From: a virus
Lineage: Duplodnaviria > Heunggongvirae > Uroviricota > Caudoviricetes
Virus record (IMG/VR): IMGVR_UViG_3300029886_000150
DNA length: 33,017 nt
Strand: one strand, 5' to 3'
This document shows, piece by piece, positions 3,860 to 19,669 of this stretch. How positions within the stretch are numbered: position 1 is the stretch's first letter; each line of letters begins with the position of its first letter. Below the pieces are notes generated by a model. That model made no database searches. It was not told the DNA's origin and saw only the letters and a list, made by a program, of their open reading frames with translations. The translations under genes were made by a program, and so were the position numbers.

Positions 3860-6134
3860 AGCCTCCGGGCGTTTTGTCCCTCCGTCAGCATTTGCCGCAG
3901 GCACCGGTAAGGCGTTTACCGGTGCTTATGCATGGAACGCGCCACGCGAGGCTGTCGGGCGCGAAAGACCCCTTACACGTGACGAGATGCGTCAGGTGCA
4001 AGGTGTTTTATCCACGATTAACCGCCTGCCTTACTTTTTGCGCTCGCTGTTTACTTCACGCTATGACTACATCCGGCGCAATAAAAGCCCGGTGCACGGG
4101 TTTTATTTCCTCACATCCACTTTTCAGCGTCGTTTATGGCCGCGCATTGAGCGCGTGAATCAGCGCCATGAAATGAACACCGACGCGTCGTTACTGTTTC
4201 TGGCAGAGCGTGACCACTATGCGCGCCTGCCGGGGATGAATGACAAGGAGCTGAAAAAGTTTGCCGCCCGTATCTCATCGCAGCTTTTCATGATGTATGA
4301 GGAACTCTGCGATGCATGGGTTGATGCACATGGCGAAAAAGAATCGCTGTTTACGGATGAGGCGCAGACTCACCTGTATGGTCATGTTGCTGGCGCTGCA
4401 CGTGCTTTCAATATTTCCCCGCTCTACTGGAAAAAATACCGTAAAGGACAGATAACCACGAGGCAGGCATATTCTGCCATTGCCCGTCTGTTTAACGATG
4501 AGTGGTGGACTCATCAGCTTAAAGGCCAGCGTATGCGCTGGCATGAGGCGTTACTGATTGCTGTCGGGGAGGTCAATAAAGACCGTTCTCCTTATGCCAG
4601 TAAACATGCCATTCGTGATGTGCGTGCACGCCGCCAGGCAAATCTGGAATTTCTTAAATCGTGTGACCTTGAAAACAGGGAAACCGGCGAGCGCATCGAC
4701 CTTATCAGTAAGGTGATGGGCAGTATTTCTAATCCTGAAATTCGCCGGATGGAGCTGATGAACACCATCGCCGGAATTGAGCGTTATGCCGCCGCAGAGG
4801 GTGATGTGGGGATGTTTATCACGCTGACCGCGCCGTCAAAGTATCACCCGACACGTCAGGTCGGAAAAGGCGAAAGTAAAACCGTCCAGCTAAATCACGG
4901 CTGGAATGATGAGGCATTTAATCCAAAGGATGCGCAGCGTTATCTCTGCCATATCTGGAGCCTGATGCGCACGGCATTCAAGGATAATGATTTACAGGTC
5001 TACGGTTTGCGTGTCGTCGAGCCACACCACGACGGAACGCCGCACTGGCATATGATGCTTTTTTGTAATCCACGCCAGCGTAACCAGATTATTGAAATCA
5101 TGCGTCGCTATGCGCTCAAAGAGGATGGCGACGAAAGAGGAGCCGCGCGAAACCGTTTTCAGGCAAAACACCTTAACCGGGGCGGTGCTGCGGGATATAT
5201 CGCGAAATACATCTCAAAAAACATCGACGGCTATGCACTGGATGGTCAGCTCGATAATGATACCGGTAGGCCGCTGAAAGACACAGCTGCGGCTGTTACC
5301 GCATGGGCGTCAACGTGGCGCATTCCGCAATTTAAAACGGTTGGTCTGCCGACAATGGGGGCTTACCGTGAATTACGCAAATTGCCTCGCGGCGTCAGCA
5401 TTGCTGATGAGTTTGACGAGCGCGTCGAGGCTGCACGCGCCGCCGCAGACAGTGGTGATTTTGCGTTGTATATCAGCGCGCAGGGTGGGGCAAATGTTCC
5501 GCGCGATTGTCAGACTGTCAGAGTCGCCCGTAGCCCGTCGGATGACGTTAACGAGTACGAGGAAGAAGTCGAGAGAGTGGTCGGCATTTACGCACCGCAT
5601 CTCGGCGCGCGTCATATTCATATCACCAGAACCACGGATTGGCGCATTGTGCCGAAAGTTCCGGTCGTTGAGCCTTTGACTTTAAAAAGCGGCATCGCCG
5701 CGCCTCGGAGTCCTGTCAATAACTGTGGAAAGCTCACTGGTGGTGATACTTCGTTACCGGCTCCCACGCCTTCTGAGCACGCCGCAGCAGTGCTTAATCT
5801 GGTTGATGACGGTGTTATCGAATGGAATGAACCGGAGGTCGTGAGGACGCTCAGGGGTGCATTAAAACACGGCCTGAAAACACCAAACCGTCAGCAAAGA
5901 AACGGAAGCCCGTTAAAATCACATGAAATAGCACCGTCGGCCAGGCTGACCCGGTCGGAACGATTGCAAATCACCCGTATCCGCGTTGACCTTGCTCAGA
6001 ATGGAATCTTGCCCCAGCGATGGGAGCTTGAGGCGCTGGCGCGTGGGGCAACCATAAATTATGACGGGAAACAATTCACGTATCTGGCTGCTGATGAGTG
6101 GCCGGGATTCTCAACAGTAATGGAGTGGACATGA
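3849..6134 (+). CDS. A: Rolling-circle replication initiator / nicking endonuclease A (P2 gpA-like), 761 aa
   Basis: ORF track 3807..6134 begins at TTG; first ATG at 3849 gives 761 aa, the P2 gpA length. Sequence resembles the gpA family as recalled; position after B and the early ORFs. Confidence 0.9.
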   Translation: MAVKASGRFVPPSAFAAGTGKAFTGAYAWNAPREAVGRERPLTRDEMRQVQGVLSTINRLPYFLRSLFTSRYDYIRRNKSPVHGFYFLTSTFQRRLWPRIERVNQRHEMNTDASLLFLAERDHYARLPGMNDKELKKFAARISSQLFMMYEELCDAWVDAHGEKESLFTDEAQTHLYGHVAGAARAFNISPLYWKKYRKGQITTRQAYSAIARLFNDEWWTHQLKGQRMRWHEALLIAVGEVNKDRSPYASKHAIRDVRARRQANLEFLKSCDLENRETGERIDLISKVMGSISNPEIRRMELMNTIAGIERYAAAEGDVGMFITLTAPSKYHPTRQVGKGESKTVQLNHGWNDEAFNPKDAQRYLCHIWSLMRTAFKDNDLQVYGLRVVEPHHDGTPHWHMMLFCNPRQRNQIIEIMRRYALKEDGDERGAARNRFQAKHLNRGGAAGYIAKYISKNIDGYALDGQLDNDTGRPLKDTAAAVTAWASTWRIPQFKTVGLPTMGAYRELRKLPRGVSIADEFDERVEAARAAADSGDFALYISAQGGANVPRDCQTVRVARSPSDDVNEYEEEVERVVGIYAPHLGARHIHITRTTDWRIVPKVPVVEPLTLKSGIAAPRSPVNNCGKLTGGDTSLPAPTPSEHAAAVLNLVDDGVIEWNEPEVVRTLRGALKHGLKTPNRQQRNGSPLKSHEIAPSARLTRSERLQITRIRVDLAQNGILPQRWELEALARGATINYDGKQFTYLAADEWPGFSTVMEWT

Positions 6135-6586
6135 TGGCAAAAATTCACGAGGTAAAGCTGCACGCAAAATATTTTGACCTTGTGCTGGAAGGAAAGAAAC
6201 GCGCAGAGTTTCGGAAAAATGACCGTAATTATGAGCGCGGGGACACGTTGATTTTGCATGAATGGGTGCAGGGTGTGTATACGGGGCGAAAGGTTGAAGC
6301 CCGGATAACAGATGTTACTGACCTGTCAGACTGGCTGGCAGATTATGTCTTGCTAAGTATTGAGCTGCTTAATACAGGCGCATATGAGATTGTGAACTGG
6401 AAAGAACTTAGTGAGCGTGGTCTGGTATTCAGAATTAATCATGAAATTATGCATCAGCTCGGCCTTGCTGTTATGTATGAACCAGAGACGGGGATGTCTG
6501 GCGGGGCAATGGTTGCCACGGATGGAGCATGGAACTATTCAGATGAACAGATGGAGCGTGCAAAGCAAAACGGGTGGCTTGGATAA
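6131..6586 (+). CDS. ASCH-like (DUF3850-like) domain protein, about 151 aa, first cargo gene
   Basis: ATG at 6131 overlapping the A stop (ATGA). N-terminal segment HEVKLHAKYFDLVLEGKKRAEFRKNDRNYERGDTLILHEW matches the ASCH/DUF3850 pattern as I recall it. Confidence 0.6.
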   Translation: MMAKIHEVKLHAKYFDLVLEGKKRAEFRKNDRNYERGDTLILHEWVQGVYTGRKVEARITDVTDLSDWLADYVLLSIELLNTGAYEIVNWKELSERGLVFRINHEIMHQLGLAVMYEPETGMSGGAMVATDGAWNYSDEQMERAKQNGWLG

Positions 6587-6792
6587 TGCACAGAATACCA
6601 GGCGAGATACCGCGACATAACACTAAAAATATCAAGCTGATGGCTATTGTTCACCGTCTACAGCAGATTATGGTCAACGAAAATCTGACGCCTGACGAGC
6701 TGGTCGGGTGTGCCGAAATAGTCCGGGATAATTACGGGCGGCTTAACTATATCGGTCAGTCCAGCGTTGCGCCACCACTACGCAGACGATAG
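6586..6792 (+). CDS. Small hypothetical protein, 68 aa
   Basis: ATG 6586 overlaps the upstream stop (TAATG); ORF ends at TAG 6790-6792, followed immediately by the hairpin at 6797-6835. No recognisable motif. Confidence 0.4.
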   Translation: MHRIPGEIPRHNTKNIKLMAIVHRLQQIMVNENLTPDELVGCAEIVRDNYGRLNYIGQSSVAPPLRRR

Positions 6793-6796
6793 AGAA

Positions 6797-6835
6797 CGCC
6801 GCCAGCCGTGAAACTTGTTTTCAGGGCTGGCGGCG
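6797..6835 (+). terminator. Stem-loop element, copy 1 (11-bp GC-rich stem, 17-nt loop containing GAAACTTGTTTTCAG), followed by GTTGAACAAC
   Basis: CGCCGCCAGCC (6797-6807) pairs with GGCTGGCGGCG (6825-6835); sits 5 nt after the stop of the 68-aa ORF. No U-tract follows, so it is not a canonical intrinsic terminator. Confidence 0.5.
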
Positions 6836-7016
6836 TTGAACAACGAGCGTAGCGAGGCGTTAGTTGACAGTCATATTTTTACTGCGTAGGTGCTGGTTTT
6901 TGACGGTTGAAAGGAGTTAGGTTGGAGAGCTAACAACTTACAAATATTCAAAAGTGAGCATCCTGTTGCTAACATGAGGTCGATTTTTTTATGTGGATGA
7001 TGCAAAAAGGATAGCT

Positions 7017-7748
7017 ATGGATACTGTAATCGCTTTTCTATCACTCGCTTTTTTCGTTGCTTTTTTCATCGGGTTAATCAAGCCATCACTGGTGCGGATG
7101 CCAAACCGTAAACGTGCAAGTGCGGTTTATCTCGGAGGTGGTTTTGCATTGAGCATAATTGGTTCAATACTCTACCCAACAGAAAAAAGCCAGCCAGTTG
7201 CTAAAACTGAAACATCAACCGTAGCAGAACACCAAACCCAAAAAACATTCGAATATAGTGAAAAAACACTCAAGGAATATCGGAACGAGCCAAAGAAGAC
7301 TCGACACGATATTGTGAATAGTTACATTGACTTTAAGAAAGTGCCTGTCACCGCATCAGATGTATTTTACGCCTGCATGAGTGAGTATACATTTACCAAA
7401 GATGATGAGTTGAAACTCGGTGATGTTCTTGGGTGGTGCTTTAATGATTATGAAAATGACCCGAATTCATTAAACAATAAAATCAATCTTGATACATTTC
7501 AGAGTAATTTTAGTGGTTGGGATGGTTCTTATCGGCCATTGGAAAAACTAATTAAAGATAATATGAACGATGATTCATCTTATAAACATGTGTCAACGCT
7601 ATATCATTTGGTTTTGAATAAAGACCCGCATGCCATTGTGAAAACCACGTTTCGCGGAACTAATGCTTATGGCGGGGTGGTTAAACAGACGATCTCGGCG
7701 CGTGTTGATGTGCGAACGGGTGAAGTTGTTTCGATACTCGATAACTAA
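7017..7748 (+). CDS. Cargo protein with two predicted N-terminal transmembrane helices and a C-terminal soluble domain of about 180 aa; function unknown
   Basis: ORF track 6993..7748 starts at GTG; ATG 7017 has a better ribosome-binding site (AGGA, 5-nt spacer). Hydrophobic segments VIAFLSLAFFVAFFIGLI and AVYLGGGFALSIIGSILY. AT-rich coding sequence. Confidence 0.65.
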   Translation: MDTVIAFLSLAFFVAFFIGLIKPSLVRMPNRKRASAVYLGGGFALSIIGSILYPTEKSQPVAKTETSTVAEHQTQKTFEYSEKTLKEYRNEPKKTRHDIVNSYIDFKKVPVTASDVFYACMSEYTFTKDDELKLGDVLGWCFNDYENDPNSLNNKINLDTFQSNFSGWDGSYRPLEKLIKDNMNDDSSYKHVSTLYHLVLNKDPHAIVKTTFRGTNAYGGVVKQTISARVDVRTGEVVSILDN

Positions 7749-7765
7749 ACCAGTAAAGTGATAAA

Positions 7766-7802
7766 CGCCGTCAGTACTGAAACTTGTTTCAGGCTGACGG
7801 TG
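7766..7802 (+). terminator. Stem-loop element, copy 2 (CGCCGTCAG / CTGACGGTG stem around CTGAAACTTGTTTCAG), followed by GTTGAACGAC
   Basis: Same loop core and same downstream GTTGAAC motif as copy 1, with different but still complementary stem bases; sits 18 nt after the 2-TM gene stop. Confidence 0.5.
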
Positions 7803-7848
7803 TTGAACGACATTAACAGTGATAAATTAGTAGCGGAACACAATAATC

Positions 7849-7877
7849 TTGTTTTGTGCATGAAAAGCATGTATTGT
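7849..7877 (+). promoter_or_regulatory. Candidate sigma70-type promoter for the 224-aa cargo gene (TTGTTT, 17-nt spacer, TATTGT)
   Basis: Hexamers with a 17-nt spacer about 30 nt upstream of ATG 7908, in an AT-rich intergenic region after the copy-2 hairpin. Confidence 0.3.
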
Positions 7878-7907
7878 GCGTAAAACGTCTATTTTACGAG
7901 GTGCGTT

Positions 7908-8582
7908 ATGGTTTTTCGTGCAGATGAAAGTGCTCAACGTGGATTTGAGAAAGCATGCAGTGTATTGATTACAAATGATATCGTTGGTAATGAGAGAGCT
8001 TTTGCTCGTCAAAAACTGGAACAAATTATTGATGAATGTGGTTCCGTAGTTGATGGGTATCCAGGTTGGCATCCTTTTTTGATGGAAACTGATTCAGATA
8101 GTTTTTCTCCAATGATTCCTGATAATTGCTCAAGTTATCGACTGCTTGATCATTCTGTATATCTGGTAAATGGAATCATAACGTGTCCTTATAGTCATGC
8201 AGTTGGCCAGTTAGTTAGCAATATTCAAGCGATACGAAACAAGCATGATTTAGCTGATATAACGATAGAAGAAATTAAAGGCGTGACTTTCTACAATTCT
8301 CATACAACACCTATGTTAATTAGATGCCGTTGGAAAACTGGACTGGAAGAAGATGGCACAATCCCCCTGCGTACAGCTTTGGGGTTGATGCTTGAAAGAG
8401 AATTGCCGGGATGGAGATGGGGACGATTTAATCAGAGTTGGGAAAGCATGAGAGGGGATATTTTGGGTTATCCTCATGGCGCTAGGTCTTCTTTATTTGT
8501 CAATCAGCAAACAGGTCAGCAGCTAAAAAACGTATGGAATCAACTTATAAAAGCTGGTTTATGGGGGGATGAATATAAATAA
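7908..8582 (+). CDS. Soluble cargo protein, 224 aa, function unknown
   Basis: ATG 7908 after GAGG; AT-rich; last gene before the cos region. No motif I can assign to a known family. Confidence 0.65.
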   Translation: MVFRADESAQRGFEKACSVLITNDIVGNERAFARQKLEQIIDECGSVVDGYPGWHPFLMETDSDSFSPMIPDNCSSYRLLDHSVYLVNGIITCPYSHAVGQLVSNIQAIRNKHDLADITIEEIKGVTFYNSHTTPMLIRCRWKTGLEEDGTIPLRTALGLMLERELPGWRWGRFNQSWESMRGDILGYPHGARSSLFVNQQTGQQLKNVWNQLIKAGLWGDEYK

Positions 8583-8723
8583 TCAGAATTATATTCCTGT
8601 GCATGTCTGTGACGCATTAATTTGCATGCGTTTTCCTCTACTGTTGCTTGTGAGAGCCGTCAGTGCCGGCGCGCTCTTGGAGTGTTCATGCAACTGCATT
8701 AAAACCGCCCCATGAAGCGGGCG

Positions 8724-8742
8724 GGCGAGGCGGGGAAAGCAC
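8724..8742. other. Cohesive-end (cos) site, 19-nt P2-type sequence GGCGAGGCGGGGAAAGCAC
   Basis: Exact match to the P2 19-nt cohesive end as I recall it, about 170 bp beyond the 3' end of Q, where cos lies in P2. Preceded by a GC hairpin CCGCCC..GGGCGG. Confidence 0.6.
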
Positions 8743-8885
8743 TGCGCGCTGGCGGTGGTGCTGATTTTATTTTTTCAGCGTCTGAGCGCGTCGTGATGGC
8801 GTTTAGATTGTTCGCCGGGGCCGTTGGTGTGTCTGCGGGGTGTTTTGTGCGGTGGTGAGCGTATGAGGGCGTGATGACGGGGTGT

Positions 8886-8909
8886 AAAAAAGCCGCCCGC
8901 AGGCGGCGA
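8886..8909 (-). terminator. Rho-independent terminator downstream of Q (minus strand)
   Basis: GCCGCC / GGCGGC stem (8893-8898, 8904-8909) followed on the minus strand by a 6-U tract (plus-strand A-run 8886-8891), 3 nt past the Q stop. Confidence 0.7.
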
Positions 8910-8912
8910 TGT

Positions 8913-9947
8913 TCAGCCGTTGTCAGTGTCCAGTGAGTAGTTTTTAAAGCGGATGACTTCCTGGCCGAGCCAGCCGTTTATCTCGCGGATCCTGTCCTGT
9001 AGCGGGATAAGCTCATTGCGGACAAAGACCTTTGCCACTTTCTCAATATCGCCCAGCGACCCGACGTTCTCCGGCTTGCCGCCCATCAACTGAAAGGGGA
9101 TGCGGTGCGCGTCCAGCAGGTCAGCGGCGCTGGCTTTTTTGATATTAAAAAAATCGTCCTTCGTTGCCACTTCACTGAGCGGGATAATTTTAATGCCGTC
9201 GGCTTTCCCCTGTGGGGCATAGAGAAACAGGTTTTTAAAGTTGTTGCGGCCTTTCGACTTCACCATGTTTTCGCGGAGCATTTCGATATCGTTGCGATCC
9301 TGCACGGCATCGGTGACGTACATGATGTATCCGGCATGTGCGCCGTTTTCGTAATACTTGCGGCGGAACAGCGTGGCTGATTCATTCAGCCAGGCAGAGT
9401 TAAGGGCGCTGAGATATTCCGGCAGGCCGTACAGCTCCTGATTGATATCCGGCTCCAGCAGGTGAAACACGGAGCCGGGCGTGAAAGGTGTTGGCTCGTT
9501 GAAGGACGGCACCCACCAGTAAATATCTTCTTCCACACCACGGCGGGTATATTTTGCCGGTGAGGTTTCCAGTCTGATGACCTTACCGGTGGTGCTGTAA
9601 CGCTTTTCCAGAAACGCATTACCGAACACCAGAAAATCCAGCACAAAGCGGCTGAAATCCTGCTGGGAAAGCCACGGATGCGGGATAAATGTCGAGGCCA
9701 GAATATTACGTTTGACGTAAATCGGGGAGCTGTGATGCACGGCAGCACGCAGGCTTTTTGCCAGACCGGTAAAGCTGACCGGTGGCTCATACCATCTGCC
9801 GTTACTGATGCACTCGACGTAATCCAGAATGTCACGGCGATCGAGTACCGGCACCGGCTCACCAAAGGTGAATGCCTCCATTTTCGGGGCGCTGGCGGTC
9901 ATTGTTTTTGCCGCTGGTCGCGGTGTTTTCCCTTTTTTCTTGCTCAT
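8913..9947 (-). CDS. Q: Portal protein (P2 gpQ-like), 344 aa
   Basis: ORF 8913..9947 minus; length equals P2 gpQ and the sequence resembles it as recalled; overlaps the P stop. Confidence 0.9.
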   Translation of the reverse strand: MSKKKGKTPRPAAKTMTASAPKMEAFTFGEPVPVLDRRDILDYVECISNGRWYEPPVSFTGLAKSLRAAVHHSSPIYVKRNILASTFIPHPWLSQQDFSRFVLDFLVFGNAFLEKRYSTTGKVIRLETSPAKYTRRGVEEDIYWWVPSFNEPTPFTPGSVFHLLEPDINQELYGLPEYLSALNSAWLNESATLFRRKYYENGAHAGYIMYVTDAVQDRNDIEMLRENMVKSKGRNNFKNLFLYAPQGKADGIKIIPLSEVATKDDFFNIKKASAADLLDAHRIPFQLMGGKPENVGSLGDIEKVAKVFVRNELIPLQDRIREINGWLGQEVIRFKNYSLDTDNG

Positions 9948-18164: not shown

Positions 18165-18950
18165 TTATGAGTGATTTTTATTTGATGCTTTGTATTCTAA
18201 AACCTTCTTATTGGCGTAAAAGAATTTTGTATATGACAGGAATATAACCAGACCTGAAGTGAAATAGACGAGGGATAGTATTAATAATGCTTTTTTGTGA
18301 CTGTTATTATCTTTAATCTCCTGGCTTAACCATTCGGAGTCCTCCTCGTTTAGCTGTAAGAGCTTATTGCAGGCGATTTCAGGAAGTGTGTCTTTTATAA
18401 ATACGTTTTGCAGTCTCTTGCAATCGGCAAGGCTATAAGTTTTATTAAATTCAACTGCTTTATTTTTGAAGGATAAAAGAACTTTGTCACTATAAACATA
18501 GTACATCATATTTTTATATGGTATGCCTATGGCATCTCTTACTATAGCGGATTGTTTGTTGTGTATATAACATGCGAAGAGAATATAAATAATACTGGCC
18601 AGAATTACAATTGTTGTTTTAATTATGTGTGGTGGTTTTGTTATGTCACCCCAGAAGCGAGTAAGGAAAAAATACGATGTTTTTAGTTTTCCATCAATCA
18701 GCCCCTGCTGTATCATTCTCACATCTTCGATGCCTGATACATTGATTCCGTTAATTATTTTAAATAGTTGAATGTCGCGCCATTTTTTGTCGAGCATTTT
18801 TAACTTTCTGTCTGAATACTCAAGATTGAAATGATGTGCAATAAACCTCATAAGATTACTTTTACCAAAGGTAACAAATGTTAATGCTATTAATAAAAAT
18901 AGATACAAAGAGATAAACCACCACGCATTAGTCACATTATCACTGAACAT
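18165..18950 (-). CDS. AT-rich moron: predicted 3-TM membrane protein, 261 aa, function unknown (position of P2 orf30)
   Basis: ORF 18165..18950 minus; ATG with GGAG ribosome-binding site; hydrophobic segments WWFISLYLFLLIALTFVTF, TTIVILASIIYILFACYI and ALLILSLVYFTSGLVIFLSY; opposite strand to the flanking late genes. Confidence 0.7.
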   Translation of the reverse strand: MFSDNVTNAWWFISLYLFLLIALTFVTFGKSNLMRFIAHHFNLEYSDRKLKMLDKKWRDIQLFKIINGINVSGIEDVRMIQQGLIDGKLKTSYFFLTRFWGDITKPPHIIKTTIVILASIIYILFACYIHNKQSAIVRDAIGIPYKNMMYYVYSDKVLLSFKNKAVEFNKTYSLADCKRLQNVFIKDTLPEIACNKLLQLNEEDSEWLSQEIKDNNSHKKALLILSLVYFTSGLVIFLSYTKFFYANKKVLEYKASNKNHS

Positions 18951-19033
18951 TACGCTCTCCTCGAATGTTGTATGGTCGTTCTACAAATGAATCCAGATAG
19001 CATAACTTTTATATATTGTGCAATCTCACACGC
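18951..19033. promoter_or_regulatory. Divergent promoter region: moron promoter (minus) and expected late promoter P_V (plus)
   Basis: 83-bp gap between divergent start codons; contains an imperfect dyad TGT-N11-ACA (18969-18985) resembling, but not exactly matching, the activator-site pattern I recall for P2 late promoters. Confidence 0.4.
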
Positions 19034-19669
19034 ATGAACACTCTCGCAAATATTCAGGAACTCGCGCGCGCACTGCGCAACATGATTCGCACCGGCATTA
19101 TCGTCGAAACCGACCTTAACGCCGGTCGCTGCCGCGTGCAGACCGGCGGCATGTGCACCGACTGGCTTCAGTGGCTGACCCATCGCGCAGGACGTTCGCG
19201 CACATGGTGGGCACCTTCCGTGGGGGAACAGGTGCTGATTCTGGCCGTGGGTGGTGAACTCGACACGGCGTTCGTTCTGCCGGGGATTTATTCCGGCGAT
19301 AACCCCTCGCCGTCTGTGTCGGCGGATGCCCTGCATATCCGTTTCCCTGACGGGGCGGTGATTGAATATGAACCCGAAACCAGTGCACTCACGGTAAGCG
19401 GAATTAAAACGGCCAGCGTGACGGCTTCTGATTCTGTTACTGCCACGGTGCCGGTGGTCATGGTGAAAGCATCAACCCGCGTCACCCTGGACACCCCGGA
19501 GGTGGTCTGCACCAACAGGCTGATTACCGGCACGCTGGAAGTGCAGAAGGGCGGGACGATGCGCGGCAACATTGAACACACCGGCGGTGAACTCTCATCA
19601 AACGGTAAGGTACTGCATACCCATAAACACCCCGGCGACAGCGGCGGCACAACCGGGAGTCCTCTATGA
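19034..19669 (+). CDS. V: Baseplate spike / assembly protein V (P2 gpV-like), 211 aa
   Basis: ORF track 19016 starts at TTG; ATG 19034 (MNTLANIQELARAL...) gives 211 aa as in P2 gpV. Confidence 0.9.
   Translation: MNTLANIQELARALRNMIRTGIIVETDLNAGRCRVQTGGMCTDWLQWLTHRAGRSRTWWAPSVGEQVLILAVGGELDTAFVLPGIYSGDNPSPSVSADALHIRFPDGAVIEYEPETSALTVSGIKTASVTASDSVTATVPVVMVKASTRVTLDTPEVVCTNRLITGTLEVQKGGTMRGNIEHTGGELSSNGKVLHTHKHPGDSGGTTGSPL

Follow-up and report, generated by a model that had tools for sequence, protein, structure and literature searches.

The window analyzed here is a stretch of 33,017 nucleotides (IMG/VR record IMGVR_UViG_3300029886_000150) that represents an Escherichia coli P2-like prophage, and this work deals with one of its genes, located at 7908-8582, which encodes a protein of 224 amino acids and is the final cargo gene ahead of the P2 cos and the portal gene Q (Table 1). 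The DG341-1 copy of the prophage is inserted beside pflA. When 2.1 kb around the gene (window 6800-8900) were used as the query, an identical sequence was found in nine complete E. coli assemblies, eight of them with the same chromosome length, and in these identical chromosomes RefSeq lists the open reading frame as the hypothetical protein WP_096167889.1. The base composition sets this reading frame apart, with a GC content of 39.3% and a third-codon-position GC content (GC3) of 27%, against 53% and 65%, respectively, in the flanking gpA and portal genes. It is variable, lies between A and Q, stands by cos, and is of foreign composition, all of them features of the hotspot cargo of P2-like phages. 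It is well established that the gpA-gpQ hotspot harbors anti-phage systems (PMC9122126). A first-pass annotation, made from the sequence alone, had described an AT-rich gene for a soluble protein, last before cos and preceded by a ribosome-binding site and a hairpin, and these features were all found: the maximum hydropathy over 19 residues was 0.91, as expected for a soluble product, GAGGTG precedes the start codon, and the upstream hairpin is strong, though it has no U-tract.

Table 1. Features at and around the gene at 7908-8582 (positions in the window).
Feature	Position	Strand	Remarks
Upstream gene for a protein with two transmembrane segments (2-TM), phrog_3403, WP_137557578.1	7017-7748	plus	Separate neighbouring cassette
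Hairpin at upstream cassette junction	7764-7805	plus	Free energy (dG) -25.9 kcal/mol, z -5.6; no U-tract
Swapped one-gene cassette	7807-8613	plus	Relative to other E. coli P2-like prophages; GC 38.8%
Operator-like region	7837-7880	plus	Half-sites aACACAA 7837-7843 (degenerate), TTGTGCA 7854-7860, TGCATGA 7857-7863, TTGTGCG 7874-7880
Candidate sigma70 promoter TTGTTT-17-TATTGT	7849-7877	plus	-35 at 7849-7854, -10 at 7872-7877; weak by consensus
Shine-Dalgarno sequence GAGGTG	7898-7903	plus	4 nt before ATG; GGT invariant in enterobacterial alignment
Coding sequence, 224 amino acids	7908-8582	plus	ATG start; soluble, isoelectric point (pI) 5.7; founding E. coli member of uncharacterized family
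Candidate weak terminator	8611-8636	plus	7-bp stem, 8-nt loop, UUUUCC; no better than shuffled sequence
P2-type cos, 19-nt cohesive end GGCGAGGCGGGGAAAGCAC	8724-8742		Aligns with cosR of phage P2
Portal gene Q	8913-9947	minus	Beyond cos

The open reading frame is a real gene, well beyond a chance one, because 133 homologues were retrieved at E ≤ 1e-3 from a set of 5.8 billion proteins and 283 clusters at 50% identity from 1.84 billion representatives, and the family shows a near-constant length and invariant residues. Nearly all members have about 222 amino acids (subfamily 1), and a second clade of about 311 amino acids carries a C-terminal extension (subfamily 2). The family occurs in alpha-, beta-, and gammaproteobacteria and in cyanobacteria.

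Comparison with other E. coli P2-like prophages gave the limits of the exchanged DNA. Nucleotide homology spans the 2-TM gene and the hairpin that follows it, breaks at 7806-7811, and picks up again downstream at 8614 or 8687, depending on the prophage compared (L003 and L002, respectively). These breakpoints indicate a swapped module made up of the gene with roughly 100 nt of DNA ahead of it and 30-100 nt behind it. The 2-TM gene is a frequent element of E. coli P2 prophages, where differing, unrelated genes for membrane proteins come after it, and no homologue of it was found across the 70 genome- and assembly-derived family loci searched. Moreover, all-against-all clustering of 65 subfamily-1 and 66 subfamily-2 loci revealed no conserved neighbour. 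The gene travels alone, with about 100 nt of upstream DNA, among P2/186-like prophages, integrative and conjugative elements (ICEs), conjugative plasmids, and genomic islands. The first-pass view of an independently organized cargo gene is in agreement with its own promoter region and with the breakpoints on either side, and the reading frame is almost certainly a real, independent cassette.

The same annotation had assigned the gene its own candidate sigma70 promoter, and this claim stood in part. The sequence is present, and the pattern TTGnnn-16/17-TAnnnT was found at the equivalent position in seven enterobacterial homologues, in agreement with the family-wide upstream consensus, but it agrees with the sigma70 consensus at only 7 of 12 positions, below the threshold of the consensus scan, which did not list it and showed no promoter excess over shuffled sequences. 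The top-scoring consensus promoters were too noisy in this AT-rich DNA to place the -35 locus by locus, and the consensus profile was used instead.

The half-sites in the operator-like region combine into two palindromes of 24 bp, both of the type yGCAyrA-N10-TyrTGCr, which overlap and are placed 20 bp apart. The -35 of the candidate promoter lies inside palindrome 1, and its -10 overlaps the last half-site. The sole perfect palindrome within the 33-kb window is the one at 7857-7880. When the upstream regions of the seven enterobacterial homologues (50-67% amino acid identity) were aligned, a conserved block, GCATgAAA...TTGTGCG, was observed over the promoter, and all the loci carried two to four copies of a 7-nt box in the approximately 90 nt ahead of the ATG. 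The density of these boxes was determined in the 120 nt upstream of 74 non-identical regions of subfamily 1 and 62 of subfamily 2. In subfamily 1, YGCAYRA reached 19.6/kb (background 0.94/kb) and YACGTRA 0.1/kb (background 0.19/kb); in subfamily 2, the values were 1.1/kb (background 1.03/kb) and 25.8/kb (background 0.17/kb), respectively. The enrichment was, therefore, about 20-fold for yGCAyrA in the ~222-residue clade and about 140-fold for yACGTrA in the ~311-residue clade. Box type differed even within one bacterial class, as the alphaproteobacterial loci L067 and L068 had yGCAyrA, and L069 and L071 had yACGTrA.

The arrangement of the boxes was also regular. In subfamily 1, the span from forward to reverse box was exactly 24 bp in 30 cases and 44 bp in 14, and the consensus reads CGCAcAAaATTg...TTTtATGCG, with a second TcaTGC 14 bp further on. 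The palindrome consistently begins 64-73 nt ahead of the ATG, the -35 is usually central in it, and a third box lies at -10/+1. Subfamily 2 has three boxes downstream of the -35, arranged with an 18-bp period, and the last one abuts the Shine-Dalgarno sequence. The plasmid relatives conform to this pattern with boxes of their own, CTTACGC-N18-GCGTAAG in IncFII/FIB and TACGCAC/TACGTAA/TACGCAA at an 18-bp period in IncA. Allowing up to one mismatch, the 140 nt preceding the gene at 54 loci contained the 24-bp palindrome 55 times, versus 17 times for the other 829 kb and two to seven times for shuffled sequences, and 7 of those 17 matches were one conserved coding site. The spacers between boxes are not conserved. 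No trans targets were found in the window or the flanks. A one-mismatch operator match, AGCATAACTTTTATATATTGTGCA, followed by a box, CGCATGAA, was observed at 18999-19038, in the intergenic region between the gene of a multi-pass membrane protein (see below) and gene V; the near-match itself (18999-19022) is probably a coincidence, the chance expectation being 0.5 per window.

The boxes quite probably form a self-operator, which the encoded protein would bind to repress its own promoter. This reading is based on the unconserved spacers, on half-sites that would make a poor RNA stem, on a box type that follows the protein clade, and on the lack of any co-inherited gene. Their overlay on the promoter suggests repressed, buffered rather than simple constitutive expression. 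This putative self-operator of the family is previously undescribed. Since the half-sites differ from each other at y/r positions, a DNA site is favored over an RNA stem; an RNA-structure reading of the repeats was rejected on this mismatch and because the 5' leader folded no better than shuffled sequences, and Rfam gave no match at E ≤ 1 in 6500-9000. A type III ToxI-like repeat RNA was also discarded, as only the 7-nt boxes are repeated, not units of 18-20 nt.

As for the protein, the first-pass annotation could name no nuclease, ATPase, or other motif in it, and our searches gave the same outcome. Pfam and NCBIfam showed no match, PHROGs gave one noise match (E 0.17), PADLOC 2.0 (5,027 defence-protein hidden Markov models) had none at E ≤ 1, and a Pfam scan of 134 family members returned nothing recurrent. 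A profile search against all PDB sequences had no match, and no informative fusions were found among the C-terminally extended homologues. The AlphaFold2 model is a single compact globule with a pLDDT (predicted local distance difference test) of 90.8 and a pTM (predicted template modeling score) of 0.88; Foldseek found no meaningful structural neighbour for it in PDB (best E 0.12), and BFVD gave no match. The family is without a detectable relative among known families or solved folds, and the fold is apparently new.

Within the 134 sequences, W54-H55-P56, G45, and G187 are invariant, and high conservation was observed for D81 (93%), H82 (94%), C93 (87%), P94-Y95 (>90%), and S194-S195 (88-98%), along with many aromatic residues. 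At position 190, 67 sequences have His, 32 have Cys, and 11 have Asn, and the core of H55, D81-H82, and C93 is common to both clades. This pattern suggests an enzyme or cofactor center, and we lean slightly toward a metal or cofactor site made of H55, D81-H82, C93, and His or Cys at 190. The His/Cys exchange at 190 would fit a metal or haem ligand rather than a general base. The conserved center and the boxes that covary with the clade over the promoter are features beyond those of the first-pass annotation. Two known architectures were considered. A His-Me finger (beta-beta-alpha-Me or HNH-like) nuclease was raised by PHGxRSSLFVNQ, in the segment 188-215 modeled as a small hairpin plus helix, and it was dropped because residue 190 can be His, Cys, or Asn and N199 is variable. 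A ribbon-helix-helix repressor was suggested by the conserved N-terminal M1-x-F3-R4, followed by helices at 5-20 and 27-44; it was judged unlikely because the segment is acidic (pI 4.8), the loop is variable in length, the helix already begins at residue 5, and no such match was found in Pfam or PDB sequences.

The family was found on several kinds of mobile elements. In Enterobacterales, it is nearly always located in the gpA-gpQ hotspot of P2/186-like prophages, where usually no further gene separates it from the portal gene, and the same locus was occupied in Atlantibacter, Raoultella, and a Serratia prophage remnant. Among IMG/VR viral contigs, the family gene was last before the portal gene in 18 of 43. 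It is a sporadic gene, present in 33 of 5,426 complete E. coli genomes (0.6%) and in 53 of 185,579 species genomes. Twelve Tn4371-like ICEs carry it between DUF736 and a large ParB-N protein, with identical family proteins in ICEs of Thauera, Thermomonas, Achromobacter, and Variovorax and a 99%-identical copy in Vogesella; a second identical pair was found in ICEs of Stenotrophomonas and Achromobacter. These identities indicate recent inter-genus transfer of the ICE-borne genes (L039-L043, L028/L029). Among 200 plasmid carriers, 158 are conjugative. Distant homologues, with about 30% identity, are frequent among the conjugative IncFII/FIB plasmids (one of them the NDM plasmid pK218-NDM), IncA plasmids, and Aeromonas plasmids of clinical and aquaculture bacteria; these plasmid homologues (L183, 2589-3362; L185, 8911-9849; L184, 8001-8927) are all annotated as hypothetical and have their own box variant upstream. 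In integrase-bearing genomic islands, the neighbours include Hachiman, SIR2/pAgo, Avs2, Gabija GajB, and a GajA/OLD-like ATPase, as well as HipA, HEPN, ParDE/Uma2, HicB, and pyocin S. In a metagenome-assembled genome of Phenylobacterium (L033, 5220-14123), the family gene stands exactly between Hachiman, made of a HamB helicase and an upstream 304-residue gene, and a SIR2-APAZ/short pAgo pair, in a compact defence island.

The locus type is well known and the family had already been catalogued; the putative operator and the conserved site are newly described here. The window gene belongs to the same protein family as 'system #47' of Rousset et al. (2022, Cell Host Microbe, PMC9122126, Table S5B), a single protein with no Pfam domain found in 82 of 18,150 E. 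coli gpA-gpQ loci, whose 223-residue sequence, MAFRAEEAAASNFENAYRYL...PHGARSSLFVNQQTGQ, is the NC101-type homologue WP_000885505. That listing gave no function, fold, conserved site, or operator (PMC9122126). The window protein is a rarer variant, present in the nine complete E. coli assemblies mentioned above, and diverges from the NC101-type homologue except in one short stretch. The family was not in the supplements of Vassallo 2022 or of the 2026 P2/P4 preprint, and neither RefSeq accession was mentioned in the searchable literature corpus.

Among the cargo proteins of P2 itself, Tin and Old are, like the window gene, encoded between gpA/orf91 and cos by AT-rich genes, each under a promoter of its own, and the prophage expresses them (phage P2 annotation; PMC9122126). 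They lie, however, on the opposite strand from the window gene's orientation. Homology to Tin (NP_046797), which the first-pass annotation had named as the finding that would overturn its view, along with a lack of conservation, was rejected by hhalign with the family profile (probability 0.05%, E 0.8), and the family is well conserved; no Old, ATPase, or TOPRIM match was found in the window protein. We know of no self-operator for Tin or Old. Type II toxin-antitoxin operons and CapRel(SJ46)-like fused modules are small, mobile, found in prophages, plasmids, and islands, and frequently related to defence, and in type II toxin-antitoxin operons the module's own product binds palindromic operators that overlap the -35 and -10. 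The operator-like layout over the window promoter is similar, but this is a single gene with no detectable toxin or antitoxin domain, and the gene was not placed among type II toxin-antitoxin systems as it has no conserved second gene; a similar regulation is possible without membership. Cofactor-sensing regulators offer a further comparison: NikR combines a ribbon-helix-helix with a His3Cys nickel site, and CooA is a Cys/His haem sensor. Rev-erb also has a Cys/His haem (PMC2652392). The likeness of the family to NikR and to CooA/Rev-erb lies in the putative His/Cys cofactor site combined with predicted binding to widely spaced inverted repeats. In addition, the Cys-Pro of T92-C93-P94-Y95 resembles a haem regulatory motif, and H-NOX domains were recurrent, weak top natural matches in structure searches. 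By analogy, the family may functionally resemble both the autoregulated toxin-antitoxin or abortive-infection modules and the cofactor-sensing repressors, and was assigned to none of them.

Collectively, we propose, with a confidence that falls just short of an even chance, that the gene is a self-contained cargo cassette, autorepressed and with a cofactor site, and that it has a single-gene immunity or exclusion role. The protein, probably oligomeric, would bind the boxes that cover the -35, the spacer, and the -10, this binding would repress its own transcription, and the lysogen would make a low, buffered amount of protein independently of the phage early and late operons. The cluster of H55, D81-H82, C93, and His or Cys190, lined by conserved aromatics, would be the metal- or cofactor-sensing part or the effector part. 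The role would be immunity or exclusion against competing phages or other mobile elements, possibly in the form of an abortive-infection or addiction-like module restrained by autorepression. The defence or exclusion role as such, suggested by genomic association, is tentative, and we incline somewhat against it. A more far-reaching version is rather unlikely: a new class of sequence-specific DNA-binding protein, with an unseen fold and a His/Cys metal or haem sensor, would act as a one-gene immune or exclusion module, carried by phages, ICEs, and conjugative plasmids, that sits on its own operator until infection shifts the cofactor or redox state, leading to release or activation.

Several observations weigh against the proposed explanation. 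The 224-residue protein is mildly acidic (its N-terminal 45 residues have a pI of 4.8), and it contains no recognizable DNA-binding motif, so another factor could bind the boxes. A tblastn search of 50,697 sequenced phage records found no homologue. The ICE setting, with DUF736 and ParB-like neighbours, and the position near repA on IncFII plasmids fit an establishment or anti-defence role equally well. Hotspots also carry non-defence cargo, such as partition systems and toxins, and system #47 was catalogued but is absent from the tables of tested systems of Rousset et al. (PMC9122126).

One alternative is that the protein is an anti-defence or establishment factor, which would help the incoming phage, ICE, or plasmid beat host immunity or settle, with a burst of expression on entry and subsequent shut-off. 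An autorepressed promoter fits the kinetics of a burst in a cell with zero repressor, and the family is present on every kind of transmissible element, with most of its plasmid carriers conjugative. The genes flanking it in the 12 ICEs are typical of transfer-proximal accessory regions; moreover, the pAsa8 copy lies within a run of small same-strand hypothetical genes, and the P2 copies are cos-proximal. We nevertheless regard this as unlikely, since the island neighbours are defence and toxin-antitoxin systems and not known anti-defence genes, which were present in just 28 of 1,511 P2 elements in a 2026 survey. The protein is also larger and far more conserved than typical anti-defence proteins, and no ssb, psiB, or ardA is annotated near the family gene in the IncFII plasmid.

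Another alternative takes the protein as a cofactor- or ligand-sensing transcription factor that mainly regulates host genes (lysogenic conversion) or element genes in trans, self-regulation being secondary. The combination of operator-like boxes and a cofactor-like site, which recalls NikR and CooA, and the conservation of the box consensus across phyla would suit such a regulator. However, the 24-bp palindrome is essentially limited to the gene's own promoter within 829 kb of flanking DNA, the one conserved coding site accounts for 7 of the 17 other matches, and the only perfect site in the window is its own; besides, a fixed host regulon is hard to reconcile with a spread over three proteobacterial classes and cyanobacteria. 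This reading, too, we consider unlikely.

The acidity of the protein and its lack of a known DNA-binding motif could also mean that it does not bind DNA at all, and that the boxes are promoter elements only or are bound by another factor of the host or the element. This is quite unlikely, as members from a single bacterial class already differ in box type according to their protein clade, the gene is inherited together with no other, and it brings its boxes into four phylum- or class-level host groups and onto plasmids. Very unlikely, in turn, is a selfish addiction or homing-type element, whose loss would be harmful, as in a fused toxin-antitoxin-like protein, or which would spread itself with no benefit to the host. 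The gene is indeed solitary, sporadic, and horizontally mobile, with identical proteins across genera, it often adjoins toxin-antitoxin genes, and type II toxin-antitoxin operons are characteristically autoregulated; but it has no second gene, antitoxin, or repeat RNA, its varied insertion sites do not match site-specific homing, the lack of a fixed catalytic His at residue 190 speaks against a His-Me nuclease, and the purifying selection that has acted over long times and across phyla points to a function worth keeping. Finally, a two-gene system with the 2-TM protein, a partnership that the first-pass annotation had named as an alternative and in which the soluble protein would sense and the membrane protein would execute, is extremely unlikely: the two genes stand side by side in the same orientation and have a comparable AT-richness, but a strong hairpin and a recombination breakpoint separate them, the 2-TM gene has unrelated partners in other E. 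coli prophages and no homologue was found at any of the 70 other loci searched, and the family is entered by Rousset et al. as a system of one protein (PMC9122126).

The autorepressed-cassette explanation is of interest because the family is an uncharacterized single-gene entry of the P2 gpA-gpQ locus, a proven source of new anti-phage systems. What was a hypothetical protein now has exact cassette limits, a confident structural model, and a set of residues for mutation (H55, D81, H82, C93, and H190), and the predicted DNA target differs between the two clades, which permits a clean swap comparison. Binding of the boxes by the protein would make it a new DNA-binding fold, and protection against phages or plasmids would make it a new one-gene immune system distributed across phages, ICEs, and conjugative plasmids, including clinically relevant IncFII/FIB and IncA plasmids in Klebsiella, Enterobacter, and Citrobacter.

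Some further observations were made on the neighbourhood of the cassette. A long GC-rich hairpin at 6795-6837 (dG -35.1 kcal/mol, z -7.7; no U-tract) recurs in diverged form at 7764-7805; the two bracket the 2-TM gene, and P2-like homology ends right after the second. Copies were also present at cassette junctions of the loci L002, L003, and L020, and they may be recombination or insulation points for the swapping of hotspot cassettes. In the same hotspot of E. coli bR_120_Kylling (L003, 3280-4508), an IS3-family element lies between the first hairpin and the 2-TM gene. The phrog_3403 gene (7017-7748 in the window; L002, 5038-5694; L003, 5392-6054) normally precedes the gene of a membrane protein of about 220 residues from another family, of which the two versions examined share 28% identity. 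The pair, listed by Rousset et al. in Table S5A merely as 'hypothetical + hypothetical', may constitute a two-gene system in its own right, with its second gene replaced in the window.

Elsewhere in the window, the orf91-like gene after gpA (6098-6586) encodes a fusion of DUF3850/ASCH and DUF7415, the P2 Orf91 being shorter (109 amino acids). A second AT-rich cargo island (GC 0.34-0.38) is located on the minus strand at 18165-18950 and encodes a multi-pass membrane protein of 261 residues; it is flanked by the tail-completion genes on one side and the baseplate genes on the other, where P2 has orf30. In other hosts, a cos-like sequence was found upstream of the HicB and family genes in the Serratia prophage remnant (L004, 7109-7183) and upstream of a DUF8168 gene in Atlantibacter (L012, 8672-8848), and these positions show that cargo can also lie between cos and the portal gene.

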